A DNA stretch of 41,012 bases, taken from the NCBI GenBank assembly GCA_964590935.1, contig CAZPXC010000005.1, positions 1-41,012 on the forward strand, in the 5' to 3' direction. The notes under the pieces were generated by a model that was not told the DNA's origin, did not search any database, and saw only the letters and a program-made list of their open reading frames with translations. The DNA is from an uncultured Methanosarcinales archaeon (GTDB lineage Archaea > Nanobdellota > Nanobdellia > Woesearchaeales > DSVV01). Each line of letters begins with the position of its first letter. Within the stretch, counting starts at the first letter, position 1. This document shows, one piece after another, positions 7,314-41,012 of the stretch. Position numbers and translations under genes: made by a program.

Positions 7314-7315
7314 AG

Positions 7316-11461: not shown

Positions 11462-11490
11462 GTTACAATCTTACACCGTCTTGCAAAAAC

Positions 11491-11504
11491 ATAATATTTA
11501 ATAA
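11491..11504 (+). promoter_or_regulatory. TATA-like box upstream of array paralog A
   Basis: ATAATATTTAATAA ends 27 nt before ATG 11532, a longer spacing than in the other paralogs, so a short leader is possible. Confidence 0.4.
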
Positions 11505-11531
11505 TGCGGATTATAAGTTATTGTTATTAGT

Positions 11532-13442
11532 ATGGGAAACGGGTTTTTGTTTTTGATTGTCGGGATGTTTATTGTAGTTGGACTTGTGGGGGGTGTTAGC
11601 GCATATACTCTTCCGTCTGACAGGACAATTGACTGGCATGAGGTGGGGATTCCTGGAGGAATACCCTCCAGGACAACGATTTGTGCTGTAATAGATAGTA
11701 CAACCTATGGGAGTGGCACGACTGATGCAACAAGCGCAATACAATCAGCACTTAATTCATGCCCTGCAAATCAGGCAGTTTATATCCCTGCAGGCACGTA
11801 TCTTGTGAGTAGTACAATCAGGATTCCCAGTAATGTAACACTCAGAGGAGAAGGCAGTAATACAGTAATTCATGCTCAGGGTTCAGGCTCTTCACTTATC
11901 TCTTTTGGAAATAGCGCAACTCCTTCACCCTCGAATTCTGTCTCGATAACAGGCGGTTCTACAAAAGGTTCACAGACCATTACACTAAGTGATGCAAGCG
12001 GGATCTCAGTTGGATCTTATCTGATGGTTACTCAGCTTAATGATCCAGATCTAGCGACTATACAGAGTAGTGAGGGAAGCACTAGTTGCACATGGTGTGA
12101 TTTATGGGGCGGGACGCGTGTTATGGGTCAGATTGTTGAGGTCACAACCGTTAATGGAAATACTGTTGGGATATCACCGGGGCTCTACATGAATTACACT
12201 CTTACTCCGTATGCTACAGGATTTAATGCAGTAGCAAAGTATGCGGGCTTGGAAAACCTTAAGATTTCAATGTATAATACAGGTTATACTGCAAACATAA
12301 GGATGGACGGATCTGCGTATTGCTGGGTTAAAGGCATAGAAAGCGATTATACTGACGGAGATCATCTTGAGGCCTTGTCTGCTTATCGAGGAGAGATCAG
12401 AGATAGTTACTTTCATGATGCATATCATCATACTCCTGGCACAACTGATGCCGATGTTTTTATTGCTGAAAAGTCAAGCGGGTTTCTGGTGGAGAACAAT
12501 GTTTTAAGGAGGTTGCATTCAGCAATAATGCTTAACTGGGGAGCCTCTGGAAATGTTATTGCATATAATTATCTGGACGGTTGTTTTGATCAGGGTGCTA
12601 CAAATGTGTTGATTATGGATATGTCCATGCATGGCGCGCATCCTATGTTTAATCTGTACGAGGGCAATAGCATGGCGACTTTTGCTCCAGACGGCATATG
12701 GGGCTCATCCAGCCATAACACTGTATTTAGGAATAACATGCGAGGAACAACACTTATTTGTGAGCCTACTGGTAGTGTCCGTAGTCCAGAGACCACTGAC
12801 TGCCATTGGGCTGTGCAGGCAAACCGCGCAATCAGCCTCGGCTTTGCTTCTACGCATTACAACATCCTTGGCAATGCGGTCGGTAGCCCTGAAATGCTTG
12901 CACTCACGATCTATAATGGAGGGACTCCTATGGGCATGCAGACAACGACCATCTGCCCGCAGTCTACTTCATATGATGCAGTAGCTTATAGTTTTTCGTT
13001 TGGTCATGTAAGTGGTGTTGAGGATAATTGCATGAGCGGATGGGGTAACTCTTCATATACAACGGCGATTCTTCACGGTAATTATGATTATGTATCAAAT
13101 TCTGTCTTGTGGAACTCAGGCATTTCTGACCATAACCTGCCAAGTTCACTTTTTCTGACTTCAAAGCCAGCGTGGTTTGGAAATCTACAATGGCCCGCTA
13201 TAGGACCAGATGTAATCGGATATGTAAGCATGATCCCTGCTCAATATTGTTATGAACAGGGACTTATGCCAGGCTGTCTCATTAGTTCTCCTGCTGGTTC
13301 ATGTGCATCGGCAGCAGACAGCGATGGAGATTCAGTTGTTTCAAATGGAGAATTGGCATATTATATCTCTGAATGGAAGCATGGCAACGTCACGATCGGT
13401 GACTTGATCGCAGCCATCGGCGAATGGAAGAACGGGTGCTAA
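11532..13442 (+). CDS. Array paralog A: secreted right-handed beta-helix protein (Pectate_lyase_3-like N-terminus) with C-terminal tag
   Basis: Signal peptide MGNGFLFLIVGMFIVVGLVGGVSA. RTIDWHEVGIPGGIPSRTTICA and TTDATSAIQSALNSCPANQAVYIPAGTYLV resemble the start of tailspike/pectate-lyase-3 beta-helices. LPSSLFLTSKPAWFGNLQWPAIGPDV is shared with B and F. Tag at 13302-13439. Confidence 0.85.
   Translation: MGNGFLFLIVGMFIVVGLVGGVSAYTLPSDRTIDWHEVGIPGGIPSRTTICAVIDSTTYGSGTTDATSAIQSALNSCPANQAVYIPAGTYLVSSTIRIPSNVTLRGEGSNTVIHAQGSGSSLISFGNSATPSPSNSVSITGGSTKGSQTITLSDASGISVGSYLMVTQLNDPDLATIQSSEGSTSCTWCDLWGGTRVMGQIVEVTTVNGNTVGISPGLYMNYTLTPYATGFNAVAKYAGLENLKISMYNTGYTANIRMDGSAYCWVKGIESDYTDGDHLEALSAYRGEIRDSYFHDAYHHTPGTTDADVFIAEKSSGFLVENNVLRRLHSAIMLNWGASGNVIAYNYLDGCFDQGATNVLIMDMSMHGAHPMFNLYEGNSMATFAPDGIWGSSSHNTVFRNNMRGTTLICEPTGSVRSPETTDCHWAVQANRAISLGFASTHYNILGNAVGSPEMLALTIYNGGTPMGMQTTTICPQSTSYDAVAYSFSFGHVSGVEDNCMSGWGNSSYTTAILHGNYDYVSNSVLWNSGISDHNLPSSLFLTSKPAWFGNLQWPAIGPDVIGYVSMIPAQYCYEQGLMPGCLISSPAGSCASAADSDGDSVVSNGELAYYISEWKHGNVTIGDLIAAIGEWKNGC
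13302..13439 (+). other. 46-aa Cys-bracketed dockerin/EF-hand-like C-terminal tag (A)
   Basis: CASAADSDGDSVVSNGELAYYISEWKHGNVTIGDLIAAIGEWKNGC-stop. Confidence 0.8.
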
Positions 13443-13445
13443 AGG

Positions 13446-13459
13446 CAAAATTTAAATAT
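13446..13459 (+). promoter_or_regulatory. TATA/BRE-like box of paralog B
   Basis: CAAAATTTAAATAT ends 21 nt before GTG 13481. Confidence 0.55.
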
Positions 13460-13480
13460 CCATTATATCAAAGTAATTCT

Positions 13481-15775
13481 GTGAAAAAGAGGGCAACTGT
13501 TTTTGGAATTGTTCTGCTGATTGGATTATTTGTTTTTGCAAACTGGGCTGGTGCTGGCATAATATCTCCGGACAGAAGGATCGACTGGTCGCAGGCAGGT
13601 GTTCCCGGAGGGATACCCGACAGGACAACTGTCTGTGCAACACTCAGTCCCGGAGCGACTCTTTCGCAGATCAATTCTGCCATCCAGAACTGTCCTGCCA
13701 ACCAGGTAGTGTACCTAAGTTCCGGCACATACAACATAGCGGGACAGATAGAATTCAACAACAAAAAGAACGTGACGCTGCGCGGTGCAGGGGCTGACCA
13801 GACCCAGTTGGTCTGGAGCAGCGCTGGAGACGGGGCAGGGCTCGGGGCGACAATCTACATCAACAACGGCGATGACAACTATGGCCTCAGCCCGAAGAAC
13901 ACTGCAAGCTGGACATCAGGCTATGCCATGGGAACGACAGTCATCACCCTTTCCAGCACAAGGAACCTTCACGTCGGCAGCCAGCTTTACCTTGACCAGC
14001 TGGATGACTCAAGTCCAGGAGACGGCTGGTTCGTGAGCGGAAGCACGAGTTACAGTCAGCAGGGAGGGACTGAAGGCTTCGGGCGCCCGGGCCGGTTCCA
14101 GGTCCAGGTGGTGGTGGTGCAGGCAATCAACGGCAACCAGGTGACGATCAAGCCAGGCGTATACCTGCCGAATTTCCGTTCCAGCCAGTCGCCGGGAGCA
14201 TGGTGGTCGAACAACCTTCCTGCCACCGGAATCGGCATCGAGGACATGACTCTTGACTTCAGGAACGCGGGAAACCCTATTGGAGGGATATTCGCATGGA
14301 ACACCGAGGCGAGCTGGATAAAAGGGTGCCGCATTCTGAACCGGCTTGTCCACAAGCATATATGGCTCTACGGAGCATCCAGATGCACTGTCCGGGACAA
14401 TTATTTTTATGGCTCCACCGGAACATCCGAAAGCTACGGCGTTGACGTCGGCCCGGCATCTTCGGATGTATTGGTAGAGAACAACATATTCGATCATGTC
14501 ACGGCACCCATCCTGCAGGAAGATACGACCGGCCTTGTCGGAGCCTATAACTATGCAAAGGACGACTATTACATAGCATGGGACGCGTGGCAGCAGGGCT
14601 CGTTCTACCATCATCATGCAGGAGATGCCATGGTCCTCTGGGAGGGCAACATCGGCGTTGGGGTGTATTCCGACGACATACACGGAACATCAAACGGCTA
14701 TACTGTTTTTCGCAATTACTTGTATGGACTGGATATTGGAGAGGAGGTGAAGACAGCGAGCACGAACGCTCTGATGATTGAGGCGTTCAACCGCTTCTAC
14801 AACTATATTGGTAACGTGCTCGGCACAGCGGGATACTTCACGCATTATGAGCACATACCGACATCATCAACCGATCCGGGAAGTTCAGATTATTCCGATC
14901 ATTCAATATACAACATGGGATACTCGGCAAACCAGGGCACATACTGGTCAGGCCCTCCTTCCATACCAAACGATGTTCTTACTGCCACAGGATCTATGCG
15001 CTGGGGCAACTACGACTCGGTCAGCGGCACAGTGAGATGGAACGCAGACGAGGTGCCCAACGGGCTGAACCAGTACGCAAATCCTGTTCCCGGCGACCAC
15101 AACCTGCCAGCGTCGCTGTACCTTGCGGCAAAACCCAGCTGGTGGTCGTCAAATATTCCCTGGCCGGCAATCGGGCCTGATGTCAGCGGCGGCAACATTG
15201 CAGGAGTGGGAGGTCATGTATACAAGATCCCTGCCCAGGTCTGTTATGAAAACACTCCGAAGACAGGTGCAATCCTTGAGTTCAACGCAGATGACTGTTA
15301 TCCTACTGGTCAGGTTCCTTCAGACACAACCCCGCCGGTAAGAAGCAATGGGGGGCCATCAGGAACATTGGCATATGGCACAACTTCAACGACGATATCA
15401 TTGAGCACGGACGAAGCAGCAACATGCAGATACTCAACAACAGCAGGCGTTTCATATGCATCAATGACACACACCTTTTCAACGACAGGCGGGACAGCTC
15501 ATTCAACAGCTGTAGCAGGCTTGACAAATGGAGGAAGCTACAACTATTATGTAAGATGCGTTGACGGAGCAGGCAATGCGAATACAGATGATAGTTTTGC
15601 TATTAGTTTTAGTGTTGCAAGTCAGGCAACCTCATGTACATCTGATGCTGATGCCGATGGGGATTCGGTCGTTTCAACAGCTGAACTAATAGATTATGTC
15701 TCTGAATGGAAATCAGGAAGCGTTTCAATAAGCGACCTGATCGCTGCGATCGACGAATGGAAGAACGGCTGCTAA
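13481..15775 (+). CDS. Array paralog B: secreted beta-helix protein (same class as A) + beta-sandwich 'ATCRYS' module + C-terminal tag
   Basis: Start reassigned to GTG 13481 (GTGAAAAAGAGGG is homologous to ATGAAAAAGAGG of the paralogs); the track start 13424 lies inside gene A. Signal peptide VKKRATVFGIVLLIGLFVFANWAGAG. RRIDWSQAGVPGGIPDRTTVCA. 'ATCRYS' module ~15325-15625. Tag 15635-15772. Confidence 0.85.
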   Translation: MKKRATVFGIVLLIGLFVFANWAGAGIISPDRRIDWSQAGVPGGIPDRTTVCATLSPGATLSQINSAIQNCPANQVVYLSSGTYNIAGQIEFNNKKNVTLRGAGADQTQLVWSSAGDGAGLGATIYINNGDDNYGLSPKNTASWTSGYAMGTTVITLSSTRNLHVGSQLYLDQLDDSSPGDGWFVSGSTSYSQQGGTEGFGRPGRFQVQVVVVQAINGNQVTIKPGVYLPNFRSSQSPGAWWSNNLPATGIGIEDMTLDFRNAGNPIGGIFAWNTEASWIKGCRILNRLVHKHIWLYGASRCTVRDNYFYGSTGTSESYGVDVGPASSDVLVENNIFDHVTAPILQEDTTGLVGAYNYAKDDYYIAWDAWQQGSFYHHHAGDAMVLWEGNIGVGVYSDDIHGTSNGYTVFRNYLYGLDIGEEVKTASTNALMIEAFNRFYNYIGNVLGTAGYFTHYEHIPTSSTDPGSSDYSDHSIYNMGYSANQGTYWSGPPSIPNDVLTATGSMRWGNYDSVSGTVRWNADEVPNGLNQYANPVPGDHNLPASLYLAAKPSWWSSNIPWPAIGPDVSGGNIAGVGGHVYKIPAQVCYENTPKTGAILEFNADDCYPTGQVPSDTTPPVRSNGGPSGTLAYGTTSTTISLSTDEAATCRYSTTAGVSYASMTHTFSTTGGTAHSTAVAGLTNGGSYNYYVRCVDGAGNANTDDSFAISFSVASQATSCTSDADADGDSVVSTAELIDYVSEWKSGSVSISDLIAAIDEWKNGC
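15635..15772 (+). other. 46-aa C-terminal tag (B)
   Basis: CTSDADADGDSVVSTAELIDYVSEWKSGSVSISDLIAAIDEWKNGC-stop. Confidence 0.8.
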
Positions 15776-15782
15776 AGAAACT

Positions 15783-15796
15783 AAATATTTTTAAAT
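15783..15796 (+). promoter_or_regulatory. TATA/BRE-like box of paralog C
   Basis: AAATATTTTTAAAT ends 23 nt before ATG 15820. Confidence 0.6.
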
Positions 15797-15819
15797 CCTG
15801 TTCATTCATTATAATATTT

Positions 15820-17460
15820 ATGAAAAGAAAGAGGTTAATCGTTTTTTGGATAATTTTAGTAATTGGACTATTGGTTTTTATCGAATGTGTTAATGCTGCT
15901 ACGATCACTACAGAGTCGTGCTCAGAGACAGATGTTCAGAATGCAATTAATTCTGCAGATGATGGAGATACAGTCAATGTGCCTGCCGGGAGCTGCACAT
16001 GGACATCTGGTGCGACGATTCCTGATGGTGTTAAATTAATAGGGGCCGGAGCTTTTGATGCAGATGGCGGAAAGAATACAGTGATTTCATCTTCTGGTTT
16101 CATAGTAACACATCTTGGCACTGGTTCCTGGTTAGAGGGTTTTAAATTTGTCAATGGCATTGCGAAACCAGATAATAATGCAGGGGAGCAGGACTGGGTC
16201 ATAAAAGATAATTATTTTGGCAATACAGGGGGCAAACAATATATTGGCGTTTCCAGGGGGGATGGAAATGGAGATGCTGATTATGAAAAGGGAACTACTG
16301 CTGGTGAGCCACCTAGTGGGGTATATCACGGCAATTATCTCTATAACATTAAGATGACTAATAATGGAAAAATAACAGGAGAAACAGCCTGGTATGAACC
16401 TACTAACCCAGGCGGAACAGACCATGCGGTTTATTTTGAAAACAACACTTTTGATCTGTCAGGCAATGTATACCCAGACAATAATGTTTTTGATTCATCT
16501 TTCGGCGGGAGAACGGTATTTAGGTTCAATAAATTTATAAACGCCAGGATGGAGCAGCATGGCGCATGGGAGGCAGATTCAAGCGGAGGCAACCCTCATC
16601 GTGGGCCAAGACTTCTCGAAGCATATGACAATTATTGGGATATGGATTACTCATTATCATATAATGCCTGGCTGATACGCTCGTTGGGGGGCATAAATCT
16701 TATCTTTAACAATTTCTGCAAAGATACAGCTTTTGGAGGCGCTTATTGTGATATAGAACTGTTGCAGTATCGGTCAAGCGGGTCAAATGGAGGATACTGC
16801 AGTCCAGATGGTTCAAACCCTTTTGACACTCCAGGGGATGCAGACACTCTTGCCGGTACGCCGGCGGCAGGAAAAGTTGGCTGTCGTGATATGCATGGAA
16901 TGGGAAAGGATTCTGCTTTAAGCCCTACACTTGTTAAGGGAGATGATAGTACAGATGACCAGGCTGACCAGTATTATGAGCCGAGCTACATATGGAACAC
17001 CACTTATTATGATGGTAACGTAATGGTACAGACATCTGTAAGTAATCTAGATACAGATTATATTACAGAAAACATAAATTATTTCCAGGGTGATGGAACT
17101 GCTGATGCAGGGGTTAGATCTGGAAAATTTGCATCTGCTCCTGAATGTAATCCTTCCACTGCTTATTATGGTTATTGGGCAACAGACCAGGGAGACTGGA
17201 ATTCAGAGAATCCTGGGCCAGACGGACAGTTATATGTTTGTGATGGTGCAAACTGGAATCTGTATTATACTCCCGCTCCCTACCCACACCCCCTGATATC
17301 AGGTGGCTCAGGTTTAACATGCACCTCAGGCGCAGATTCTGATGGTGATTCATCTGTTTCAACCGAGGAGTTGGTTGATTATATCTCTTATTGGAAAAAT
17401 GGAAGTGTTGCGATAGGCGACCTGATTTCCGCGATTGCAGAGTGGAAGAACGGGTGCTAG
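15820..17460 (+). CDS. Array paralog C: secreted beta-helix-like protein, 'INAA-CS / VPAGSCTW' class, with C-terminal tag
   Basis: Start ATG 15820 (track 15706 begins inside B). Signal peptide MKRKRLIVFWIILVIGLLVFIECVNA. SCSETDVQNAINSADDGDTVNVPAGSCTW. C-terminal DGQLYVCDGANWNLYYTPAPYPHPL. Tag 17320-17457. Confidence 0.85.
   Translation: MKRKRLIVFWIILVIGLLVFIECVNAATITTESCSETDVQNAINSADDGDTVNVPAGSCTWTSGATIPDGVKLIGAGAFDADGGKNTVISSSGFIVTHLGTGSWLEGFKFVNGIAKPDNNAGEQDWVIKDNYFGNTGGKQYIGVSRGDGNGDADYEKGTTAGEPPSGVYHGNYLYNIKMTNNGKITGETAWYEPTNPGGTDHAVYFENNTFDLSGNVYPDNNVFDSSFGGRTVFRFNKFINARMEQHGAWEADSSGGNPHRGPRLLEAYDNYWDMDYSLSYNAWLIRSLGGINLIFNNFCKDTAFGGAYCDIELLQYRSSGSNGGYCSPDGSNPFDTPGDADTLAGTPAAGKVGCRDMHGMGKDSALSPTLVKGDDSTDDQADQYYEPSYIWNTTYYDGNVMVQTSVSNLDTDYITENINYFQGDGTADAGVRSGKFASAPECNPSTAYYGYWATDQGDWNSENPGPDGQLYVCDGANWNLYYTPAPYPHPLISGGSGLTCTSGADSDGDSSVSTEELVDYISYWKNGSVAIGDLISAIAEWKNGC
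17320..17457 (+). other. 46-aa C-terminal tag (C)
   Basis: CTSGADSDGDSSVSTEELVDYISYWKNGSVAIGDLISAIAEWKNGC-stop. Confidence 0.8.
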
Positions 17461-17465
17461 AGAAG

Positions 17466-19058
17466 ATGAATAATAAAAATATTTTTTTGATATTTGTCGT
17501 TGGGATGTTTATTTTAGTTGCTTTTGCCGGGAGTGCATGTGGCGAAACAATAAACGCAGCGTCATGTTCCCAGGCAGATGTCCAGGCGGCGATCGACTCT
17601 GCTTCTGGTGGAGATACCGTTAATGTGCCTGCTGGAAGTTGCACCTGGTCAAATCGGCTCGTGATAACCAAAGGGATCAAACTAATAGGTGCTGGCGACG
17701 GGGTTACATATAGCAATGGAACAGTGATCACATGTACCTATTCGTCAGGCCATATCGAGGGTTCAGATGGTTATGCAGTTGTTTATTCTCCTGACCAATC
17801 TGATAGGGTTGCAGGATTTAGGTTGTCAGGATTTGAGTTTGACTTCTCTGGTTTGTCTGAGGGCATAGGGATCTGGAACGAGCTTGCAAACCAGTGGAAC
17901 AATCCCGTAACAAATGTCAGGGTTGACCATAACATATTGAAAGATGGCAGGCAGGAATGGATGGTGATTGGAGGGGTTGTCTACGGTGTTGCTGACAATA
18001 ACATAATAGACCATACGACTGGTGGGGGTTCGAGTGACGGCATAGACCATATGGGGCTGGGAGATGGCGCCTGGCAGCATATGTCATATGAGTTCGGAAC
18101 GTCTGAGACCTGGTTCTGGGAAGACAACACGTTCAAGTCCACATCAGGATATCTTGGCGACAACTGGGATTGCACAAACGGTGCGAGATATGTTGCAAGG
18201 TACAACACTATACAGGAGACAGGCGATGCTGGCGCCATGCCGGCATTTAATTTTCATGGGAATACAGGATCGGTGAACAGCTGTATGGGGATGGAAATAT
18301 ACCGCAATTCCATAACAGCAGGAACGAGTAACCATTACATCACAACCCAGCGCGGAGGGAAAGCCGTTGCATTTGACAATTCTGTCAGCAGTCACGCTTC
18401 GGATTATATATCATATGTAGCAGATTATGGTGCAAGCTGTAATGGCCAGGGTTGTGATACCCTGACCGCTTATCCGGTCAGCCAGGTCAGTGGAGAGCCA
18501 CAGCACCCGAGCGATTCGTATTACTGGAATAACGAGGTTCATGGGTCTGTCTCTTATGATTATAAAATTTATTGTGTACTGGGTTACTCTGGACCTGGTT
18601 GTACAGGCGCGGATGTTTGTTGCCCATCTTATCCTCCTTATAGGAATGTGCCACAGGAGGGTTTGGATGTCTGGTTTCAGCATCCAACATTCGATGGCAC
18701 GGCGGGAGTTGGAGTAGGCACCAAAGCCCAGATGGATGCGATCACCACCTGCACAGAAGGGGTCGGTTATTGGGTAACTGATGAAGGAGATTGGAATTCA
18801 GAAAGCCCAGGTCCCGATGGGCAACTATACAGGTGCGGTTCATCAAACAACTGGGTCCTTTATTACACACCTTATACATATCCGCATCCATTAAGAGAGG
18901 ATGGAACTGGCCCGGTTTGCGGGGCATCTGATAACAATCCCCTTGACGGTGTTGTTTCAAACGAAGAATTAACTGATTATATTTCTTCCTGGAAATCAGG
19001 AGATGTTGCGATAGGCGACCTGATCGCTGCGATTGCAGAATGGAAGAATGGATGCTGA
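17466..19058 (+). CDS. Array paralog D: secreted protein of the 'INAA-CS / VPAGSCTW' class with variant C-terminal tag; no own promoter
   Basis: ATG 17466 is only 5 nt after the stop of C and has no TATA box, so it is probably co-transcribed. Signal peptide MNNKNIFLIFVVGMFILVAFAGSA. SCSQADVQAAIDSASGGDTVNVPAGSCTW. DGQLYRCGSSNNWVLYYTPYTYPHPL. Tag 18918-19055. Confidence 0.85.
   Translation: MNNKNIFLIFVVGMFILVAFAGSACGETINAASCSQADVQAAIDSASGGDTVNVPAGSCTWSNRLVITKGIKLIGAGDGVTYSNGTVITCTYSSGHIEGSDGYAVVYSPDQSDRVAGFRLSGFEFDFSGLSEGIGIWNELANQWNNPVTNVRVDHNILKDGRQEWMVIGGVVYGVADNNIIDHTTGGGSSDGIDHMGLGDGAWQHMSYEFGTSETWFWEDNTFKSTSGYLGDNWDCTNGARYVARYNTIQETGDAGAMPAFNFHGNTGSVNSCMGMEIYRNSITAGTSNHYITTQRGGKAVAFDNSVSSHASDYISYVADYGASCNGQGCDTLTAYPVSQVSGEPQHPSDSYYWNNEVHGSVSYDYKIYCVLGYSGPGCTGADVCCPSYPPYRNVPQEGLDVWFQHPTFDGTAGVGVGTKAQMDAITTCTEGVGYWVTDEGDWNSESPGPDGQLYRCGSSNNWVLYYTPYTYPHPLREDGTGPVCGASDNNPLDGVVSNEELTDYISSWKSGDVAIGDLIAAIAEWKNGC
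18918..19055 (+). other. 46-aa C-terminal tag, loop variant (D)
   Basis: CGASDNNPLDGVVSNEELTDYISSWKSGDVAIGDLIAAIAEWKNGC-stop. Confidence 0.8.
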
Positions 19059-20679: not shown

Positions 20680-20684
20680 TAACT

Positions 20685-23655: not shown

Positions 23656-23660
23656 TAACC

Positions 23661-23674
23661 AAACATTTTTAAAA
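23661..23674 (+). promoter_or_regulatory. TATA/BRE-like box of paralog G
   Basis: AAACATTTTTAAAA ends 21 nt before ATG 23696. Confidence 0.6.
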
Positions 23675-33586: not shown

Positions 33587-33600
33587 AAACATTTATATTA
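33587..33600 (+). promoter_or_regulatory. TATA/BRE-like box of paralog M
   Basis: AAACATTTATATTA ends 20 nt before ATG 33621. It lies in the only long (133-nt) intergenic spacer of the array, which also carries T-runs after the stop of L. Confidence 0.55.
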
Positions 33601-33620
33601 TAATATTTCTATATAACCTT

Positions 33621-35885
33621 ATGAAAAGAGGGATGAAAGGAAGATTCTTAGTTTTTGCAGTTATTTTAGCCCTGTTTTTTATTCCAAAATCAAATGCAGC
33701 TGTTTTATGGTCAGAAAATTTTAATGAGTTCAGTGCTGATTGGTCCCAAAATGACCTGCAGGACGGCAGGCCAAATTGTCCGTCAGGATATGACTACTGC
33801 GCTGCTGATACTCAGGGAGATTATGGAAGTCCAGATATCGAGATAACAACTGCAGCGGAGCGTTCCGATCCTGACGGCAATAACAGGGGTTTCAGGTTGC
33901 ATATATGGAGAGATTCGGGCGGAACTTGTTGTGAGAACGGGATAACCGACGCCAGCCTTTGGCCAGGACAAACCAATTTCTATTTGAGAACCTATTTGCG
34001 TTTAGATTTCAATTCTCAAACATCATACGCAAAGCTATTTAGGATTAAGGATTCTTCAAACACTCAACGGTTTATTTTAGATCTTTACAATAAATATGGA
34101 TACGGCGGTACTGTTTTTACGCTCGGAAGTAGCGCAGATGGATTCGGAAATGACTATCCAAATACAAATTACAAGCTGGAGAATGACTATACCCCCAATA
34201 CATGGATAAGTGTGGAACTGTTCATAGACCAAACAAACCATCAATGGACATTGTGGGTTGACGGCGTTCAGCAGGGCAGTCCTGTATCTATTCCTACGTC
34301 AAATTATGTCATAACAGGGACGATGATAGGAGGAAACCAAGTCGGTCAGGGGACTGTGGACCATATAATTGATTATGATGATCTCGCTGTGGGTGATTCT
34401 TATATAGGTCCTGCTGGTGGAGGGGACACAACCCCTCCTGCCATATCAGGGGTATCACCGACAGGGACACTTCCCTTTGGAACGAGCCAGGCAACCCTCT
34501 CCCTGGCCACGGATGAGACAGCCACGTGCAGGTACTCGACAACTCCCGGGACGGCATATTCCTCTATGACCGGGACCTTCACCGGATCGACGAGCCACTC
34601 GGCGACAGTCAGTGTCTCTGACGGAAACACCTATAACTATTATGTCCGGTGCCAGGACCAGGCAGGCAATACCAACCCCGGCGATTACCCAATAAGCTTC
34701 AATGTGGCTCAGGCAGGGATACCTGCAATAAGCTCTGTCTCGGGCGATATCTCAAATGGACAGACTGTCACGATAAGCGGGAGCGGGTTTGGTGCCACAG
34801 GCCCTGATGTCATCCTGTTTGATGATTTTGATACAGGAGCAAATGGCCAAAATCTTGCATCTTCTCCGCAAATCGGTTCATGGGACAGGAATGATGCTCC
34901 TTATGCCACTTACAGCAATTCACAGCATCACAGCGGAACACAGTCGGCTCAAGCAGTGCATACTCCTTCATTGTCATGGTCAAACTTCAATGTAGAGTTC
35001 AGCAGTCCATCAACGCTTTATGGAAGCTTCTGGTTCAGGGTATCCAGCTTTGGTGGGGGTGGGCAGTACAAATTAAACCAGGTACACGGAGACTGCAATT
35101 GTGGCGATTTTGCTCCCGGAGTCATGACAGGGGATATGGGTGCGGGTTGGTGGAAAACCTATATCTCCTATGAGGATGGTTCAACTAGTGATCAATATAG
35201 CGCGAATTATCCCAATTCTCCTTCTGCTAATGCATGGCATCATTTCGAGTGGATTGGGCGTCAGTCATCAGGAGGTGTATCAGACGGATCAGTCAAAATT
35301 TATATAGATGGTATTAAGGTCACGCCATCGTTTATGGATTCTGTGAAGACCAGAAATTCTGCTGGTAATAGTTGGTATCTATTTGAATTTTTTACCGGAC
35401 TTACAAATATGGCATCTTCAGTTACGACTTGGATTGATGACGCTTATCTTTCTGCGTCATGGGCAAGGATTGAGATATGCAATGCAAATACAAACTCAGG
35501 GTCCAGCCACTGTGAAATACAAATTCCTTCATCCTGGTCATCTGATTCGATAACAGTAACAGTAAACCAAGGTTCCTTCACTTCAGGTCAGACTGCATAC
35601 CTATATGTTGTTGATTCAACAGGTTCAGTAAATGCAGATGGTTATCCGATCACCCTTGGAGCGGGGGTAGGCCCGGTCTGCGGAAATGGGAACTGTGAGA
35701 GCGGAGAAACGCCAGCAGGCTGTCCTGCTGATTGCACAAGTTCATGCACATCAGGAGCAGACAGCGACGGAGACAGTGTTGTTTCAAATCTGGAATTGAC
35801 CGGTTTTATCTCTGATTGGAAAAGTGGGAGTGTTGCGATAGGCGAACTGATCGCTGCGGTTAATGATTGGAAGAACGGGTGCTAG
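33621..35885 (+). CDS. Array paralog M: secreted double jelly-roll (ConA/LamG-like) protein + 'ATCRYS' module + IPT/TIG-like segment + 4-Cys knot + C-terminal tag
   Basis: Signal peptide MKRGMKGRFLVFAVILALFFIPKSNA. LamG-like signatures NTWISVELFIDQTNHQWTLWVDGVQQG and NAWHHFEWIGRQ...VKIYIDGIKV. 'ATCRYS' module ~34428-34706. IPAISSVSGDISNGQTVTISGSGFG. CGNGNCESGETPAGCPADC (35679-35735). Tag 35745-35882. Confidence 0.8.
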   Translation: MKRGMKGRFLVFAVILALFFIPKSNAAVLWSENFNEFSADWSQNDLQDGRPNCPSGYDYCAADTQGDYGSPDIEITTAAERSDPDGNNRGFRLHIWRDSGGTCCENGITDASLWPGQTNFYLRTYLRLDFNSQTSYAKLFRIKDSSNTQRFILDLYNKYGYGGTVFTLGSSADGFGNDYPNTNYKLENDYTPNTWISVELFIDQTNHQWTLWVDGVQQGSPVSIPTSNYVITGTMIGGNQVGQGTVDHIIDYDDLAVGDSYIGPAGGGDTTPPAISGVSPTGTLPFGTSQATLSLATDETATCRYSTTPGTAYSSMTGTFTGSTSHSATVSVSDGNTYNYYVRCQDQAGNTNPGDYPISFNVAQAGIPAISSVSGDISNGQTVTISGSGFGATGPDVILFDDFDTGANGQNLASSPQIGSWDRNDAPYATYSNSQHHSGTQSAQAVHTPSLSWSNFNVEFSSPSTLYGSFWFRVSSFGGGGQYKLNQVHGDCNCGDFAPGVMTGDMGAGWWKTYISYEDGSTSDQYSANYPNSPSANAWHHFEWIGRQSSGGVSDGSVKIYIDGIKVTPSFMDSVKTRNSAGNSWYLFEFFTGLTNMASSVTTWIDDAYLSASWARIEICNANTNSGSSHCEIQIPSSWSSDSITVTVNQGSFTSGQTAYLYVVDSTGSVNADGYPITLGAGVGPVCGNGNCESGETPAGCPADCTSSCTSGADSDGDSVVSNLELTGFISDWKSGSVAIGELIAAVNDWKNGC
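35745..35882 (+). other. 46-aa C-terminal tag (M)
   Basis: CTSGADSDGDSVVSNLELTGFISDWKSGSVAIGELIAAVNDWKNGC-stop. Confidence 0.8.
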
Positions 35886-35899
35886 AAAGATTTATAAAT
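35886..35899 (+). promoter_or_regulatory. TATA/BRE-like box of paralog N
   Basis: AAAGATTTATAAAT ends 20 nt before ATG 35920. Confidence 0.55.
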
Positions 35900-35919
35900 A
35901 TCATTTATTCATTTTGTTC

Positions 35920-38091
35920 ATGAAAATAAAGGGGTTAATTGTTTCGGGAGTTTTGTTTTTATTTGTGGTTAGTTATGTTTCTGCAGCTATTTCTTTTACC
36001 AACGGTTATTGGTCGACCTCTTTTAACGAAGGATGTGATGCTGAGTGGACATGGTCTTCCACTAATTACCATCCACCATGCTATCCTGAATATGACCGCG
36101 GAGGCGATAACGAGTGCAATGGCCAAGGCGAGCAAATAACATCTGCTGCCAATAATCCTTCTGGCGGTGGTGGGAGAGGACAGAGACATTGGGAAGGTGA
36201 TGGGTCGAATGCGAATAGTGGAGGTCTGGCCACATCTCTTTCTGGACTAACAGAAATATGGATACGGTTCTATATGCGCTACCAGTCAGGATTCGCGTGG
36301 AGCGGCAATTCAGTCCATTATGACAAGATCATCTACATAAATCCAGCTGGCACGGGCCAATACATAATTCCTGAATTTCACGATAATGTACTTGCCATTA
36401 CGACAAATGTTGCTATCGCAAGCTCAACAACGTGGCAGGATGTCATGGGCGGGAACACAGCAGATGGTCAATGGCATTGCTACGAATTCCACATGAACAC
36501 TAATGATGGCACTGCCCAAGCATGGCTGGATGGAAACCCCATAATAGACACGACTAGCACTAGTCTTATTGGACGAACGATGAATAGAATTGGTATTGGC
36601 AGCAATCAAGATGACCCTAATAATGGAGGTTGCTACTATGTTGATTTTGATGACATAGCCATAGCACTTCCGTCCTACACAGGTTTTGTCACAGACTCAA
36701 ACGGAAACCCTATGATAGGTCCGATTTCAGCGAATTGCGACGACGGGGTTTGCGATTCAGGAGAAACCTGCTTACAGGATAGTTGTTGTGATGGGGCCAG
36801 TTACGATACAGGAACACAGGTTTGTTGTTCAGGAACAGTATATACTGGAACCTGTTGTTCAACCTCTGATTGTTCAGGAACTGATACTTGTGAAAATCAT
36901 ATTTGCACTGCTCAGGCAGGGATACCTGCAATAAGCTCTGTCTCGGGCGATATCTCAAATGGACAGACTGTCACGATAAGCGGGAGCGGTTTCGGGTCGA
37001 AGACCCAGGCCGGACCTTTGATTTCAAGTTATGATGATGCAAATACTGCTGATAATTTTTACAGCATGGGTGTCGGGAGCGCTCCCGGTGGTAGCTGGAG
37101 GTCTTATGGTTCTGTCAGCATACAAACAAGTGATAAGAGATCCTCAAATTATCAGAATGAGAAATATGTCAGGACCGATTTTAATGACGGCAATTATCAT
37201 TTTCTTAGAGCTTACACTTCAGGAAGTTCTTTTTATGTCTCTTTTTGGTGGAGAACAACACAGAGCATTTCACAGCCTTCAGGAGGAAATGCCAAGTTTG
37301 TGCTGCTATGGCCTCAGGGAACCGGAGGAAGCGCAAGCCATATCCAGGAGGCTTTTTGGGGAAGCCCTGTAAATGTTATACGCAGTGCACAGGATAATGG
37401 AGGTTCGCCTTATGACGACTGGACAAATATGATCCCTTCAAGTCCCTTTACAACCTGGCACCATATGGAGATAATGGCAGATGCTTCAAGCTGGTGGTCG
37501 ACTCAGGACTATGAGCATACCAGGACCTGGGGCGGATTCAATCTTGGAAGCTTCTCTTCTCCCGAATGGAGGTTCGGGCATGGGACAGGAGGGGGGAGCG
37601 GGGGCTATATTGAGATCGACCAGGTGTATATTGACGATACAAAAGCGCATGTTTTCATCTCAGATAAGAGCAGCATGGGAAGCTGGTCAACATATTCAGG
37701 CAAGGCTCATACAGAAATCCAGGTCCCTTCAGCCTGGTCTGGCTCTTCAATCTCATTCACGTTAAATCAGGGCTCGTTCTTTGATGGAGAAACGGTTTAC
37801 CTGTATGTGGTTGATGAGAACGGCGAAATAAATGCAGATGGTTATCCGATCACCCTTGGAGCGGGGACAGGCCCTGTCTGCGGAGACGGAGATTGTGAGA
37901 GCGGGGAAACGCCTGCAGACTGTCCTGCTGATTGCGGAGGCACAGGTTCATGCATATCAGGCGCAGACAGCGACGGAGACTCGGTTGTTTCAAATGAAGA
38001 ATTGATAAGTTACATCTCTGAATGGGAATCAGGAACAGTTACAATCGGCGACCTTATTGCCGCGATCGCTGAATGGAAGAACGGGTGCTAA
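35920..38091 (+). CDS. Array paralog N: secreted double jelly-roll (ConA/LamG-like) protein with Cys-rich insert, IPT/TIG-like segment, 4-Cys knot and C-terminal tag
   Basis: Start ATG 35920 (track 35863 begins inside M). Signal peptide MKIKGLIVSGVLFLFVVSYVSA. GQWHCYEFHMNTNDGTAQAWLDGNPI. Cys-rich insert CDDGVCDSGETCLQDSCCDG...CENHIC. IPAISSVSGDISNGQTVTISGSGFG. CGDGDCESGETPADCPADC (37879-37935). Tag 37951-38088. Confidence 0.8.
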   Translation: MKIKGLIVSGVLFLFVVSYVSAAISFTNGYWSTSFNEGCDAEWTWSSTNYHPPCYPEYDRGGDNECNGQGEQITSAANNPSGGGGRGQRHWEGDGSNANSGGLATSLSGLTEIWIRFYMRYQSGFAWSGNSVHYDKIIYINPAGTGQYIIPEFHDNVLAITTNVAIASSTTWQDVMGGNTADGQWHCYEFHMNTNDGTAQAWLDGNPIIDTTSTSLIGRTMNRIGIGSNQDDPNNGGCYYVDFDDIAIALPSYTGFVTDSNGNPMIGPISANCDDGVCDSGETCLQDSCCDGASYDTGTQVCCSGTVYTGTCCSTSDCSGTDTCENHICTAQAGIPAISSVSGDISNGQTVTISGSGFGSKTQAGPLISSYDDANTADNFYSMGVGSAPGGSWRSYGSVSIQTSDKRSSNYQNEKYVRTDFNDGNYHFLRAYTSGSSFYVSFWWRTTQSISQPSGGNAKFVLLWPQGTGGSASHIQEAFWGSPVNVIRSAQDNGGSPYDDWTNMIPSSPFTTWHHMEIMADASSWWSTQDYEHTRTWGGFNLGSFSSPEWRFGHGTGGGSGGYIEIDQVYIDDTKAHVFISDKSSMGSWSTYSGKAHTEIQVPSAWSGSSISFTLNQGSFFDGETVYLYVVDENGEINADGYPITLGAGTGPVCGDGDCESGETPADCPADCGGTGSCISGADSDGDSVVSNEELISYISEWESGTVTIGDLIAAIAEWKNGC
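37951..38088 (+). other. 46-aa C-terminal tag (N), closest to the family consensus
   Basis: CISGADSDGDSVVSNEELISYISEWESGTVTIGDLIAAIAEWKNGC-stop. Confidence 0.8.
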
Positions 38092-38098
38092 AGAAACC

Positions 38099-38112
38099 AA
38101 ATATTTTTAAAT
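38099..38112 (+). promoter_or_regulatory. TATA/BRE-like box of paralog O
   Basis: AAATATTTTTAAAT ends 21 nt before ATG 38134. Confidence 0.6.
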
Positions 38113-38133
38113 TCTGTTTATCTATTATATAAA

Positions 38134-39930
38134 ATGAAAAAGGGGATTGAAAAAAAATTCTTGCTCTTGGTTGTTGGATTGTTTTTGATTGTGAATTCTG
38201 TTGTAAGCGTTTTGGGTGCTACTTATTATGTCAGGCAGGATGGTTCGGGTGACTTTGCAACAATACAAGCCTGCGCAGATGCTGCCACGCAAGGGGATAC
38301 TTGTTTGGTTTATCCAGGTAGCTATGATGAGAGAGTATCTTTCCATAGTTCTGGGTCAGACGGGTCGCCGATAATTTTCAAGGCAAACGAAAATGCAAAG
38401 GTCAGGGCATTTACGATAACCAACCAGGCCTACATAAGTATAGATGGATTTGAGATCACGCATGAAGGCATGACTCAGGAAGCCTCAAGCACTATACATG
38501 CCTCCATATTCATGGATTCTACCAGCCATATCAATATACTTAACAATTATATACATGACACTGTGCGACCATGCATTTCAGAGCATCAAAGTGCATCCAC
38601 CTTCGCCGACTATACCTGGATAAAGAACAATACGCTGCGACAATGTGGTCACGGGACCGCAACAGGCATAGAGATATTCGGCAGCCACAATCTGGTTGAA
38701 GACAATGACATCTCAAATTCCGGCGGGGACTTCATGCGCCTCACCGGCGGTGATTTCAACGTCGTAAGGAACAATGTCTGGCATGACAACATCAATCCTG
38801 ATTCCACGTACCATATCGACGGGCTTCAGCATTGGTGCTCCAGTTCTGTGCCTGTCTCAACACATCACCTACTGATAGAAAACAACCTGATGTATAATGC
38901 GCCTGATGCCAATTCGCATTTTACAATATTCCAGGATATTGGCGGAGACTGCAATAGCTCTGGATTCATTCTAAGATACAATACTGCAAGAGATTTAGGC
39001 AGCAGCTTCGCCGGCACAGATGATGGAAACGGACTGAAGGGGGTGGATAATCTGATTATATACAGCAATACATTAGTGGATTTAGGTACTGCACAAGATC
39101 CCAAACCATGGAGTATAGTATCCCATTCAGACCAAGCTGCCGGTGGCATGGTGCTGAACAATATCTTCTACAATGTGGTAAGAGATGGGGGTTATGTGCA
39201 CTACAGGGATGCAGCCCTCTCAGGCAGTTGGCATGCAGACTACAATCTCGGGTATAATTCCCTGTGCGAAGCATCCTGCATCTGGGGAAACCAGGATTAT
39301 TCCATAAAGCAGGAACCGCATGGTTTGTTGAATGAGGATCCGCTATTCGAGGATTTTGCTTCGCATGATTATGCATTGGAGCCTGATTCTCCTGCTGTGA
39401 ACGCCGGGGGGCCTCTTACCACTGTTTCAGCTGCTGACAGCGGCACAGGAAGGGATTTGGATGTTGAGAATGCAGAATTCTTCCAGGACAGCTGGGCAGG
39501 AGTCGATCCTGACTGGATTGCGGTCGGCTCAGTCAGCAATGTCATGGGGATTTCATCTATTGATTATGACACAAACACAATTACGCTTGCAGGCTCGATA
39601 TCAAGAAATCAGGGAGATCCTGTTTATTTATACAAGGATTCAGATGGGACAAGGGTCCTTTACGGAAGCGCTCCGGACATAGGCGCGTATGAATTTGTTT
39701 CAGGAACAGGTTCTGTTTGCGGAAATGGGGACTGTGAGAGCGGAGAGACCCCTGCAAGTTGCCCTGCTGATTGCGCAGATGCGAGCTCCTGCATATCAGA
39801 TGTAGACAGCGACGGAGATTCAGCTGTTTCAACTGGTGAATTAACTGATTATATTTCTTCCTGGAAATTAGGAAATGTAACAATCAGCGACCTGATAGCT
39901 GCAATAGGTGAGTGGAAGAACGGGTGTTGA
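38134..39930 (+). CDS. Array paralog O: secreted PbH1 beta-helix protein ('TYYV' class) + 4-Cys knot + C-terminal tag
   Basis: Signal peptide MKKGIEKKFLLLVVGLFLIVNSVVSVLGA (about 90% identical in DNA to J). TYYVRQDGSGDFATIQACADAATQGDTCLVYPGSYDE. ILNNYIHD, VEDNDISN, VRNNVWHDN, IENNLMYN. PDIGAYEF. CGNGDCESGETPASCPADC (39718-39774). Tag 39790-39927. Confidence 0.85.
   Translation: MKKGIEKKFLLLVVGLFLIVNSVVSVLGATYYVRQDGSGDFATIQACADAATQGDTCLVYPGSYDERVSFHSSGSDGSPIIFKANENAKVRAFTITNQAYISIDGFEITHEGMTQEASSTIHASIFMDSTSHINILNNYIHDTVRPCISEHQSASTFADYTWIKNNTLRQCGHGTATGIEIFGSHNLVEDNDISNSGGDFMRLTGGDFNVVRNNVWHDNINPDSTYHIDGLQHWCSSSVPVSTHHLLIENNLMYNAPDANSHFTIFQDIGGDCNSSGFILRYNTARDLGSSFAGTDDGNGLKGVDNLIIYSNTLVDLGTAQDPKPWSIVSHSDQAAGGMVLNNIFYNVVRDGGYVHYRDAALSGSWHADYNLGYNSLCEASCIWGNQDYSIKQEPHGLLNEDPLFEDFASHDYALEPDSPAVNAGGPLTTVSAADSGTGRDLDVENAEFFQDSWAGVDPDWIAVGSVSNVMGISSIDYDTNTITLAGSISRNQGDPVYLYKDSDGTRVLYGSAPDIGAYEFVSGTGSVCGNGDCESGETPASCPADCADASSCISDVDSDGDSAVSTGELTDYISSWKLGNVTISDLIAAIGEWKNGC
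39790..39927 (+). other. 46-aa C-terminal tag (O)
   Basis: CISDVDSDGDSAVSTGELTDYISSWKLGNVTISDLIAAIGEWKNGC-stop. Confidence 0.8.
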
Positions 39931-39932
39931 GG

Positions 39933-39945
39933 AAATATTTTTAAA
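39933..39945 (+). promoter_or_regulatory. TATA-like box abutting the start codon of paralog P (spacer deleted)
   Basis: GGAAATATTTTTAAA is followed immediately by ATG 39946. The same box upstream of J is followed by a 21-nt spacer. Confidence 0.4.
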
Positions 39946-41012
39946 ATGAAAAGAGAGGTAATTGTTTTTGGGATCATATCTTTAGTAGGATTATTTATTT
40001 TTATTGAAGGGGTTAATGCTGCGATGATTAATGCCGCGAACTGTTCATTTGCTGATGTTTCTTCTGCAGTTGCTTCTGCTTCTTCTGGGGATACTGTGAA
40101 TGTTCCTGCTGGGAATTGCACTTGGTCAAGTACATTGACTATTAGCAAATCTATTTATCTTGCTGGTGCTGGACCATCATCTACAGTTATTTCTAGGTCT
40201 GTTGTGGGGAAAATTATCAGCGTCTCACTTTCATCTGATGTTCCTTTACGTATTTCTGGGTTTGGTTTTGTGTTTCCGACAAATCAACCCACCGGAGATT
40301 ATATGACAGCTATTTATGTTGTACGTGGAGTAGAGCTTACCCAAATAAGGATAGACCATAATGCTTTTACTAAAGGACATGGCACTCTTTTTATTACTGG
40401 TCAAGTCTATGGGGTTGCTGATAATAACCTATTCACTAATGTAAATGTGAATTATTTTGTTGGACCTGATGATCTTGCATGGAATGGCCCCATTGAAGCA
40501 GGAACAGCCAATGCCTTTTTCTTTGAGAATAATACTATAATTGTAAATGATGGTTCTGAAAGTAAAAGCCCGGATGCTGTAGTCTATATTCAAGAGGGAT
40601 CAAGTGTCGTTGTTAGGGATAACACCTTTAATGCTAGTGCATTTACTACTAGTAGTTCTGGTCTGACTATTCTCAATAATCATGGTAATCAAGGATATTA
40701 TCCTAGCGGATCAGTGAGACGTGCGAGTTCTATTTTTGAAGCCTACAACAATACTGTTGCGGATTACGGTGGTATCTATGGCAATATGTTTGGTATTCGA
40801 GGTGGATCTGTATTGATATATGATAATACAATTACCCAGACGAATATACATACATTTAGCAAATTAAATGAAGAAGAGGCATGGCAAACTGCATTTTTTT
40901 CTCCTTTAAGGACAGAATGGCCTGCTCAGGATCAGGTGTTTAATAGCTTTTATTGGGGTAATACTCTAAATGGAAACCCAGTTTACCCTACAGTTGATAC
41001 TAGTTCTACAAT
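39946..41012 (+). CDS. Array paralog P (3'-truncated by window edge): secreted protein of the 'INAA-CS / VPAGSCTW' class
   Basis: Absent from the ORF track because it has no stop in the window. Hand translation is open to the last base: MKREVIVFGIISLVGLFIFIEGVNAAMINAANCSFADVSSAVASASSGDTVNVPAGNCTWSSTLTISKSIYLAGAG...IRIDHNAF...VRDNTFNA...IYDNTITQ... Confidence 0.8.
   Translation, partial: MKREVIVFGIISLVGLFIFIEGVNAAMINAANCSFADVSSAVASASSGDTVNVPAGNCTWSSTLTISKSIYLAGAGPSSTVISRSVVGKIISVSLSSDVPLRISGFGFVFPTNQPTGDYMTAIYVVRGVELTQIRIDHNAFTKGHGTLFITGQVYGVADNNLFTNVNVNYFVGPDDLAWNGPIEAGTANAFFFENNTIIVNDGSESKSPDAVVYIQEGSSVVVRDNTFNASAFTTSSSGLTILNNHGNQGYYPSGSVRRASSIFEAYNNTVADYGGIYGNMFGIRGGSVLIYDNTITQTNIHTFSKLNEEEAWQTAFFSPLRTEWPAQDQVFNSFYWGNTLNGNPVYPTVDTSST

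Follow-up and report, generated by a model that had tools for sequence, protein, structure and literature searches.

DPANN archaea are abundant, mostly uncultured, and thought to live attached to other cells; to our knowledge, little has been established about how they hold on to the envelope of a partner and work on it. Here, we describe a tandem array of at least 16 co-directional genes for secreted-type proteins on contig CAZPXC010000005.1 of assembly GCA_964590935.1 (41,012 nucleotides (nt); this whole stretch is referred to as the window), whose products join variable bodies, with predicted glycan-enzyme or lectin folds, to a common C-terminal module of 46 residues, the tag. We read the tag as a minimal dockerin-like surface-docking module that would equip a recombining arsenal of glycan-active proteins, and we hold this reading with belief and doubt in about equal measure. 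An initial annotation of the window took the array for a system not yet described; the use of one docking tag on many carbohydrate-active enzymes is, however, the principle of the cellulosome, and the tag itself appears to be derived from dockerins or EF-hands. The array is not a categorically new organisation. What is new is the tag, which is unrecognised by Pfam and NCBIfam and partnerless so far, and which was not found described in a literature search on dockerins and on surface proteins of Woesearchaeota and DPANN archaea.

The left border of the array is formed by guaB, a conserved gene for IMP dehydrogenase (9977-11461, + strand; PF00478). From there to the contig end all credible genes lie on the + strand, with 15 complete open reading frames (ORFs), A to O (11532-39930), followed by P, which is truncated by the contig end; minus-strand ORFs of at least 150 amino acids (aa) in this stretch are all nested within large + strand genes. 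All 15 complete ORFs are intact and in frame, and all 15 proteins share the ending WK(N/D)GC-stop. The N-termini, judged by eye, have a Lys/Arg-rich start, a hydrophobic core of 12-18 residues and an A-x-A-like end, and span 22-28 residues. The proposals of 16 co-directional secreted-type genes after guaB, of Sec-type signal peptides of 22-29 aa and of a shared C-terminal ending, all made in the initial annotation, are borne out by these observations.

A hidden Markov model (HMM) of the tag finds 15 copies in the window, all flush with the stop codon and scoring 65-77 bits, except for that of gene F (33.5 bits). The tag had been called invariant; only 8 of 47 alignment columns are so (C2, L19, W26, G29, W43, K44, G46 and C47), and mean pairwise identity is 67% for amino acids, 71% for nucleotides and 56% for third codon positions, with an identical codon at 60% of the positions where two tags have the same amino acid. 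Because synonymous sites have diverged, the sequences point to an old tag held by selection on the protein; neither recent duplication nor wholesale gene conversion nor a fault of assembly accounts for it. The first half of the tag follows the plan C-x3-4-[D-x-(D/N/S)-x-(D/N)-G-x-(V/I)-(S/D/E/T)-x-x-E]-L-x-x-Y-I-x-x-W-K-x-G and the second half x-V-x-I-x-(D/E)-L-x-x-A-I-x-x-W-K-x-G-C, and the tag is internally duplicated in the unit (V/I)-x-x-x-(D/E)-L-(I/L/M)-x-x-I-x-x-W-K-x-G.

The loop in the first half has the form of a canonical 12-residue EF-hand loop, with ligand-type residues at positions 1, 3, 5, 9 and 12, while position 8 is hydrophobic. In 192 non-redundant tags, the corresponding columns are conserved as D6 (99%), N/D/S8 (86%), D/N10 (93%), G11 (59%), V/I13 (100%), S/D/E/T14 (95%) and E17 (99%), and a PDB search with a tag profile matches EF-hand loops, those of calmodulin among them, weakly for each loop and with a summed E of ~1e-6. 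From this pattern the tag is predicted to bind calcium. AlphaFold2, run on an alignment of 68 tags, gives a model with a predicted local distance difference test score (pLDDT) of 96.9, in which a loop (1-14) is followed by a helix (15-27), a 4-residue turn and a second helix (32-44), the two helices being antiparallel and amphipathic and each closing with W-K-x-G; with no helix ahead of the loop and a single functional loop in this model, the tag is not an EF-hand helix-loop-helix pair. Of 191 tags, 175 have a cysteine at each end and 4 have neither, and several one-cysteine tags carry a cysteine inside the loop instead. The two terminal cysteines probably close the tag as a disulfide clasp.

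Judged from its sequence, the tag can be read as derived from a dockerin and as retaining one and a half F-hands, although it falls outside current family definitions. A group of W-type dockerins, found among the homologues of protein M and coming from Candidate Phyla Radiation (CPR) bacteria and others, served as controls; these pass PF00404 at 35.8-37.7 bits, and their helices end in '...DLSILLSNWKK'. The tag aligns to them (hhalign 74.5%, E 2.7e-5) over 37 columns that cover both helices and place W on W, with a single 10-column gap, where the tag has neither the linker nor the front half of the second calcium loop; the calmodulin control aligns to the tag over 20 columns at 22%. The G-x-V-x-I-x-(D/E)-L stretch that precedes helix 2 of the tag matches positions 6-12 of a dockerin loop. 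As in the cohesin-dockerin system, a small C-terminal module of calcium loop plus helix is carried by secreted, signal-peptide-bearing carbohydrate-active proteins, one such module serves many cargos, a helix motif is duplicated internally, the termini would be clasped, and the helices are of the '...(D/E)L..(I/L)..W(K)..' type seen in the CPR dockerins that pass PF00404. A clasp that joins the two termini is a known feature of dockerins (PMC3821032). The only recurrent named family matched by the tags is the NCBIfam model dockerin_GC (NF041540), which is hit below threshold by 31 of 68 tags (best E 5e-4); tag residues 28-46 align to model positions 49-67 of 67, and a Gly-Cys end appears to be common to both, as judged from the family name only. 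The term 'GC-type dockerin' was not found in the literature search.

Several results weigh against calling the tag a dockerin. It lies below the Pfam Dockerin_1 (PF00404) gathering threshold of 22.9 bits, with no match for 15 proteins at E<=0.01; isolated tags have no Dockerin_1 match at E<=10, and Dockerin_1 is absent among the 25 families listed, of 32, for 69 family members. The EF-hand_1 model scores 15.6-16.7 bits on tags against a threshold of 25.4, and dockerin_GC, a model of 67 positions as compared to 46 residues in the tag, scores 16.5-18.3 bits on the tags of the window against a cut-off of 29. Alignment to three Clostridium type I dockerins (checked against 1ohz) covers 15 columns of the calcium loop only (hhalign 6.8%). 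In architecture, the tag has 46 residues, one calcium loop and two helices, whereas a dockerin has ~60-70 residues, two loops and three helices; two tandem F-hand repeats are not found, as the second repeat consists only of the last 6-7 residues of its loop (G-x-V-x-I-x-[DE]) and a helix. Loop position 12 is Glu, as in EF-hands, where dockerins have Asp, and the clasp of the tag would be a covalent Cys-Cys bond. The tag of F is without the 9-residue calcium loop. Foldseek of the 46-residue tag model against the PDB returned nothing below E 4, which is attributed to the hairpin being too small for the method. Cohesin (PF00963) was not found in the six proteins encoded upstream of the array or in called neighbours of related loci, and no scaffoldin was found either. 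On the question, raised in the initial annotation, of whether the tag belongs to a characterised sorting or anchoring family, there are thus matches to dockerin_GC and EF-hand models, all below threshold, and no Pfam or NCBIfam cut-off is passed.

Under the dockerin-like reading, each array protein would be exported by Sec, and its C-terminal module would fold round one calcium ion, stapled by the disulfide, and dock non-covalently onto a cell-surface receptor, as a dockerin does; candidates for the receptor are the S-layer and beta-sandwich proteins, whether cohesin-like or of another kind. A cell equipped in this way would present enzymes and lectins at its surface as an interchangeable set, directed at a target rich in glycans, for instance the envelope of a host or extracellular polymeric substances (EPS). 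A localisation or docking role, which the initial annotation had already suggested, is the most plausible function for the tag. Two genes on the minus strand, 5-9 kb upstream of the array, encode a 172-aa protein with a lipobox-like LTGC (5566-6084) and a 920-aa Cys-rich protein that is C-terminally membrane-anchored (2807-5569). The 172-aa protein and the N-terminal domain of the 920-aa protein have a beta-sandwich domain in common (32% identity, E 3e-13) with a weak match to bMG10; a search of the 172-aa lipoprotein against the PDB as a possible cohesin gave no match. In two related metagenome loci, L040 (2001-4634) and L042 (6837-9455), which may not be independent, a protein with six copies of a bMG10-like domain is encoded directly downstream of a tagged alpha-2-macroglobulin-like gene; the bMG10-like domain has no link to cohesins. 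This domain may serve the tag as a receptor or scaffold.

A bolder version of this reading, which we regard as possible and rather doubtful, is that the tag belongs to an undescribed display system general to Woesearchaeota and Pacearchaeota, in which a single-calcium, disulfide-clasped 'half-dockerin' would plug into a receptor that is no canonical cohesin, with the bMG10-like beta-sandwich domain or the host's own envelope as candidates, and in which the arrays would set host range or glycan diet. If this is true, the arrays would be fast-recombining, individually promoted arsenals in these episymbionts.

The tag is widespread outside the window. An exhaustive HMM search, on which the estimate of family size rests, returned at least 795 clusters (50% identity) with E<=1e-3 as the limit and 114 with E<=1e-10; in the 795 clusters the tag is nearly always at the extreme C-terminus, and the N-termini are signal-peptide-like. 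A word-indexed search with the tag profile recovered 3 proteins, and a genome scan with a narrow peptide pattern found 2 loci and is no measure of phyletic spread. Family members that were looked up are unnamed or called 'hypothetical protein', and the named carriers are Woesearchaeota and Pacearchaeota. All loci with several tags are co-directional, as are the 6 tags that lie within 10.7 kb on the Woesearchaeota chromosome OY970338.1, and the 16-gene array is the largest found in this analysis. The neighbourhoods of tagged loci hold archaeal housekeeping genes and no recurrent partner, and many metagenome contigs end at a tag. A scan of viral contigs found no tag, and a phage or virus origin of the tag was dropped on this ground. 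Four proteins outside the window (P0076, P0094, P0144 and P0028) carry cysteine-less or tandem internal variants of the module (...W..G...W..G), which in P0076 alternate with beta-sandwich domains of 'VPSGW' type. Because such variants occur, the tag superfamily appears to be broader than the C-terminal, GC-ended form.

Cargo families in 69 members include Laminin_G_3 (19), Beta_helix (18), CBM9 (12), Polysacc_lyase (4) and F5/8 type C (4), and further a sialidase lectin domain, GH71, an apiosidase-like family, CBM96 and the disaggregatase repeat; an alpha-2-macroglobulin-like protein is also tagged in a related metagenome locus. Such glycan-directed cargo, together with the finding of no cohesin nearby, would also suit a tag that is itself a target-binding module, that is, a small calcium-dependent domain resembling a lectin or carbohydrate-binding module (CBM) that attaches to the glycans or S-layer of a host or prey, or to EPS, and is not a self-anchor. 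Aromatic residues and calcium are typical of sugar-binding sites, and the tag has two invariant tryptophans and two lysines in its pseudo-symmetric helix pair. However, many members already carry CBM9, LamG or F5/8C domains, so that a second universal binder seems redundant, the tag has no similarity to CBM or lectin families of Pfam or NCBIfam, and the tryptophans may just form the core of a 46-residue fold. We consider this alternative unlikely.

The bodies of the array proteins were initially sorted into at least five unrelated or distant classes. BLAST groups them as A, B and the second half of F; C, D, L, P and the first half of F; E, H, J and O together with G, K and I; and M and N. Signal peptide and first beta-helix rung are common to the first three of these groups (hhalign 96.5%, 93.9% and 91%), so that a count of at least five unrelated classes is overstated, and 14 of the 16 bodies are predicted, from sequence comparison and one structure model, to share a right-handed beta-helix fold of lyase, hydrolase or epimerase type while being very divergent in sequence. 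Pectate-lyase or beta-helix families of Pfam match above the gathering score in A, E, F, G and H, and at or just below it in B (26.8 vs 27 and 25.5 vs 25.9 for the PF12708/PF13229 pair) and O (25.8 vs 25.9); L has a weak PF12708 match (24.7 vs 27). The AlphaFold2 model of L (pLDDT 67.5, predicted template modelling score 0.70) shows a repetitive solenoid built of beta structure throughout, after which come the two tag helices, and Foldseek matches it exclusively to right-handed beta-helix proteins, the best being phage ORF18 (7chu), alginate lyase (6kfn), chondroitinase B (1dbg) and an alginate epimerase/lyase (8jaz) at E 4.5e-5 to 7e-4, with PL6 and AlgE enzymes also matched. C, D and P were assigned to the beta-helix fold by homology to L, and I, J and K by homology to G and E.

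Proteins M and N share 30% identity over their full length (BLAST); they appear to lie off the beta-helix fold and agree with a ConA-like jelly-roll on weak, below-threshold matches (for N itself, PF14099 at E 0.018 and Laminin_G_2 at E 0.17). Relatives covering 29-47% of M carry PF13385, PF02210 or PF14099, and over 262 aa the N-terminal domain of N has 42% identity to P0224, whose PF14099 pass lies in a different region. Searches of PDB sequences with class-C and M/N body profiles gave no matches. A single fold for all bodies, which together with a single function was named in the initial annotation as the mark of an ordinary paralog expansion, is predicted for 14 of the 16, with M and N jelly-roll-like. 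The accompanying proposal that the bodies have glycan-enzyme or lectin folds agrees with the Pfam matches, with the Foldseek result for the L model and with the homology of N to a PF14099 member, and we retain it as a prediction. Secreted surface proteins with beta-helix or lectin folds are described in DPANN archaea, including Nanobdella aerobiophila, and have been proposed to recognise or degrade a glycosylated host envelope (bioRxiv 10.1101/2023.10.27.564410). The array proteins resemble these in their folds and in being secreted; the Nanobdella aerobiophila proteins differ in length (908-1320 aa) and in having Ig-like folds, and no common C-terminal tag or tandem array is reported for them. 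C-terminal transmembrane helices are described only for other surface proteins (bioRxiv 10.1101/2023.10.27.564410).

The matches of the L model to phage depolymerases bring up a further alternative, in which the helical hairpins of the tags bundle the proteins into homo- or hetero-oligomers without a scaffold. Beta-helix depolymerases and tailspikes are often trimers, and the tag is modelled as an amphipathic helical hairpin with internal two-fold sequence symmetry. The same tag, however, is found on LamG, CBM9, alpha-2-macroglobulin-like and jelly-roll cargo, the calcium loop and cysteine clasp indicate a self-contained monomeric fold, and a single chain folds at pLDDT 97 in AlphaFold2. Oligomerisation as the purpose of the tag is in our view improbable.

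The position of the tag bears on yet another alternative, that of a C-terminal sorting or processing signal that is removed, or whose terminal cysteine is modified, by a dedicated enzyme or export step. PGF-CTERM/archaeosortase, LPXTG and the C-terminal domain of the type IX secretion system (T9SS) are C-terminal sorting analogues, and in all of them, as here, an N-terminal signal peptide and variable cargo are combined with a common C-terminal element. The placement of one tag on many cargos is how a sorting signal behaves, the Gly-Cys end is conserved, and 182 of 191 non-redundant copies are C-terminal. The other nine are N-terminal (after the signal peptide), internal or tandem, which favours a domain that stands on its own over a sorting signal that is cleaved off. 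Unlike the analogues, the tag has neither a transmembrane segment nor a cleavage motif, and it lacks a basic tail; it is a confidently folded, soluble calcium-loop domain with amphipathic helices ending in WKNGC. Some members have 1-4 residues past the cysteine, or no cysteines, no NCBIfam sorting-signal model was matched (E<=10), and an N-terminal Sec signal suffices across a single archaeal membrane. We judge a sorting or processing signal to be very improbable, and the dockerin-like module remains the preferred reading.

Gene by gene, all on the + strand, the array is composed as follows. Gene A (636 aa; 11532-13442) encodes a signal peptide, a pectate-lyase-like beta-helix (PF12708, E 4.9e-14) and a tag at 13302-13439 (76.6 bits) that is flush with the stop; gene B (764 aa; 13481-15775), which begins with GTG, against the ATG start form initially claimed for every gene, encodes a beta-helix 33% identical to the second half of F, an Ig-like module and a tag at 15635-15772 (77.3 bits). 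The class defined by INAAxCS...GDTVNVPAGSCTW contains gene C (546 aa; 15820-17460; tag 17320-17457, 76.3 bits), gene D (530 aa; 17466-19058; tag 18918-19055, 64.7 bits, with a DNNPxDG loop variant), gene L (465 aa; 32090-33487; tag 33347-33484), which is modelled as a right-handed beta-helix with two C-terminal helices, and gene P (39946-41012, cut by the contig end), whose class-C body with signal peptide matches C, D and L by BLAST. Gene F (969 aa; 20746-23655) has a fused class-C and class-A body and a degenerate 37-aa tag (23542-23652). PbH1 beta-helices are encoded by gene E (543 aa; 19048-20679; PF13229 E 5.5e-39, NosD E 9.9e-14; tag 20539-20676, 66.7 bits), gene H (540 aa; 25402-27024; PF13229 E 2.1e-21; tag 26884-27021), which has an Ig-like module, and gene O (598 aa; 38134-39930; tag 39790-39927, 70.9 bits), which has a Cys-rich linker, a PF13229 match and weak chondroitinase B and DUF1565 matches, while gene J (607 aa; 28512-30335; tag 30195-30332, 76.6 bits) is of the TYYV beta-helix class and has BLAST matches to E and K. 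The AADVYI beta-helix class contains gene G (566 aa; 23696-25396; tag 25256-25393, 76.4 bits), with a PF13229 match and a Cys-rich linker, and gene K (556 aa; 30377-32047; tag 31907-32044, 74.7 bits), which are 39% identical over 530 aa (BLAST), and, as a distant member, gene I (469 aa; 27065-28474; tag 28334-28471, 70.5 bits), which is 26% identical to G over 516 aa. Gene M (754 aa; 33621-35885; tag 35745-35882) combines two jelly-roll-like domains, an Ig-like module and a Cys-rich linker, and gene N (723 aa; 35920-38091; tag 37951-38088, 74.9 bits) is its paralog.

The array is mosaic. By similarity the tags group as B-H-G, I-K-N, A-J, D-E and L-M, which cuts across the body classes and partly follows adjacency, and agrees with the initial proposal that one C-terminal module has been grafted onto different bodies. 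A module of ~100 residues, Ig-like, is common to B, H and M at 59-72% identity (B-H 72%, B-M 59%), and the Cys-rich linker CG(N/D)G(N/D)CESGETPAxCPADC is common to G, M, N and O. In gene F, a class-C body (aa 1-~400) is joined in frame to a class-A body (aa ~403-922), with BLAST matches to D (aa 2-393) and B (aa 403-922) and PF12708 at aa 435-512; what is deleted at the fusion point is exactly the junction of tag, promoter and signal peptide. M and N share an 86-nt patch at 98% identity (34707-34792 and 36910-36995), which encodes AQAGIPAISSVSGDISNGQTVTISGSGFG, a weak TIG-like start, and looks like recent gene conversion. Promoter and signal peptide of J and O are 92% identical over 133 nt, the 5' 275 nt of G and K are 84% identical, and the tag DNA of H and B has an exact shared run of 60 nt. 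Because of these mosaics, conversion patches and the one fusion, the conserved 5' ends (promoter and signal peptide) and 3' ends (tag) are read as probable recombination handles.

Two side observations concern the mobility of these parts. The Ig/Fn3-like module (...LSLSTDEAATCRYST...YYVRC.D..GN.N...), located at ~15300-15620 in B, ~26570-26870 in H and ~34430-34710 in M, shares 50-66% identity with modules in proteins from Acidobacteria, CPR bacteria and other sources (PF16656, PF00041, PF25077), far above the similarity of the remaining protein, which suggests that the module moves between domains of life. Short ORFs consisting of a tag only lie beside full tagged genes in related loci (L003, 10609-10734; L030; L031; L043), and such remnants are consistent with frequent deletion or recombination at tags.

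Most genes of the array appear to be individually promoted. The junction motif AAAYATTTWTAAA occurs 12 times, compared to 0.31 expected, and 10 of the 12 copies lie 3-10 nt past array stop codons (including 15783-15795 for C, 23661-23673 for G, 27030-27042 for I and 38099-38111 for O). The other two copies precede unrelated genes, so that the motif is the organism's ordinary TATA-type promoter and not array-specific. A TATA box had been claimed for every gene. A TATA-like box is found at -30 to -23 from the start codon in nine genes (B, C, G, I, J, K, L, N and O), which is the geometry expected for archaeal leaderless mRNAs. The others deviate: A has its box at -37, M a different AT-rich box, F a box at -56, behind a broken old start, ATGAAAAGATAG, 30 nt upstream, and P a box 8 nt from the ATG. 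Genes D, E and H have no promoter of their own; their starts sit 5, -11 and 5 nt from the preceding stop, E overlapping the end of D by 11 nt, and by this spacing they must be co-transcribed with the preceding gene. At the O-P junction (39930-39946), 22 nt between box and ATG are missing relative to the J junction, and gene P may rely on read-through from O. Most genes would thus be transcribed from their own TATA-type box ~25-30 nt from the ATG, with leaderless starts expected ~25-30 nt downstream of AAAYATTTTTAAA, while D, E and H would ride on the transcript of a neighbour.

That the array is an assembly chimera, made by collapse or mis-joining at its repeated junctions, is so improbable that it can be set aside: related contigs often terminate in or beside a tag and the contig of an independent Logan assembly ends within gene B, but that assembly reproduces window positions 2100-14102 (guaB, A and the start of B) at 99.99% identity, the reading frame is uninterrupted in all 15 complete genes, the same co-directional arrangement is present on the complete Woesearchaeota chromosome OY970338.1, and the longest exact match between tags is 60 nt. 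The initial annotation had warned of mis-assembly at ~270-nt junction repeats; the repeated junction is present in 13 copies of 168 nt that are merely 60-74% identical, and collapse is unlikely for this reason.

The source of the window is, by sequence, a Woesearchaeota-like DPANN archaeon. The contig encodes RIO1 kinase and TatA, and TATA-type promoters are in use. Its assignment follows from guaB, which shares 71% identity with its counterpart on the complete Woesearchaeota chromosome OY970338.1 and 65% and 61% with two further Woesearchaeota-named proteins, and from the nearest named relatives of the tag, which are in one Pacearchaeota metagenome-assembled genome (MAG) and in the same chromosome OY970338.1. 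The two closest relatives keep the rhodanese-guaB pair, followed by Nre and housekeeping genes, with no array downstream of guaB; the array therefore appears to be a lineage-specific island, or tandem expansion. Scans of the window for tRNA and Rfam families found nothing. Elsewhere in the window, a subtilase (467-2542, +; Peptidase_S8, E 2e-46) has an N-terminal extension of ~420 aa with no family match or obvious signal peptide, and an S8 protease is also encoded a few kb from a tagged gene on a contig of another MAG. A 472-aa protein (8171-9589, +) with a borderline match to the RelA_SpoT nucleotidyltransferase family (26.8 bits vs a cut-off of 27) is possibly alarmone-synthetase-like, which would be unusual for a DPANN archaeon.

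The array illustrates clearly how domains are shuffled in nature between conserved 5' and 3' handles. If the dockerin-like reading is true, a calcium-dependent, disulfide-stapled module of 46 residues would be the smallest known dockerin-type plug, with potential use in protein engineering. The tag marks at least 795 clusters, nearly all of them annotated as 'hypothetical', and would allow the surface proteins displayed by Woesearchaeota and Pacearchaeota to be listed from sequence alone; it also directs the search for a receptor, and labels the surface through which this poorly understood group of archaea likely interacts.

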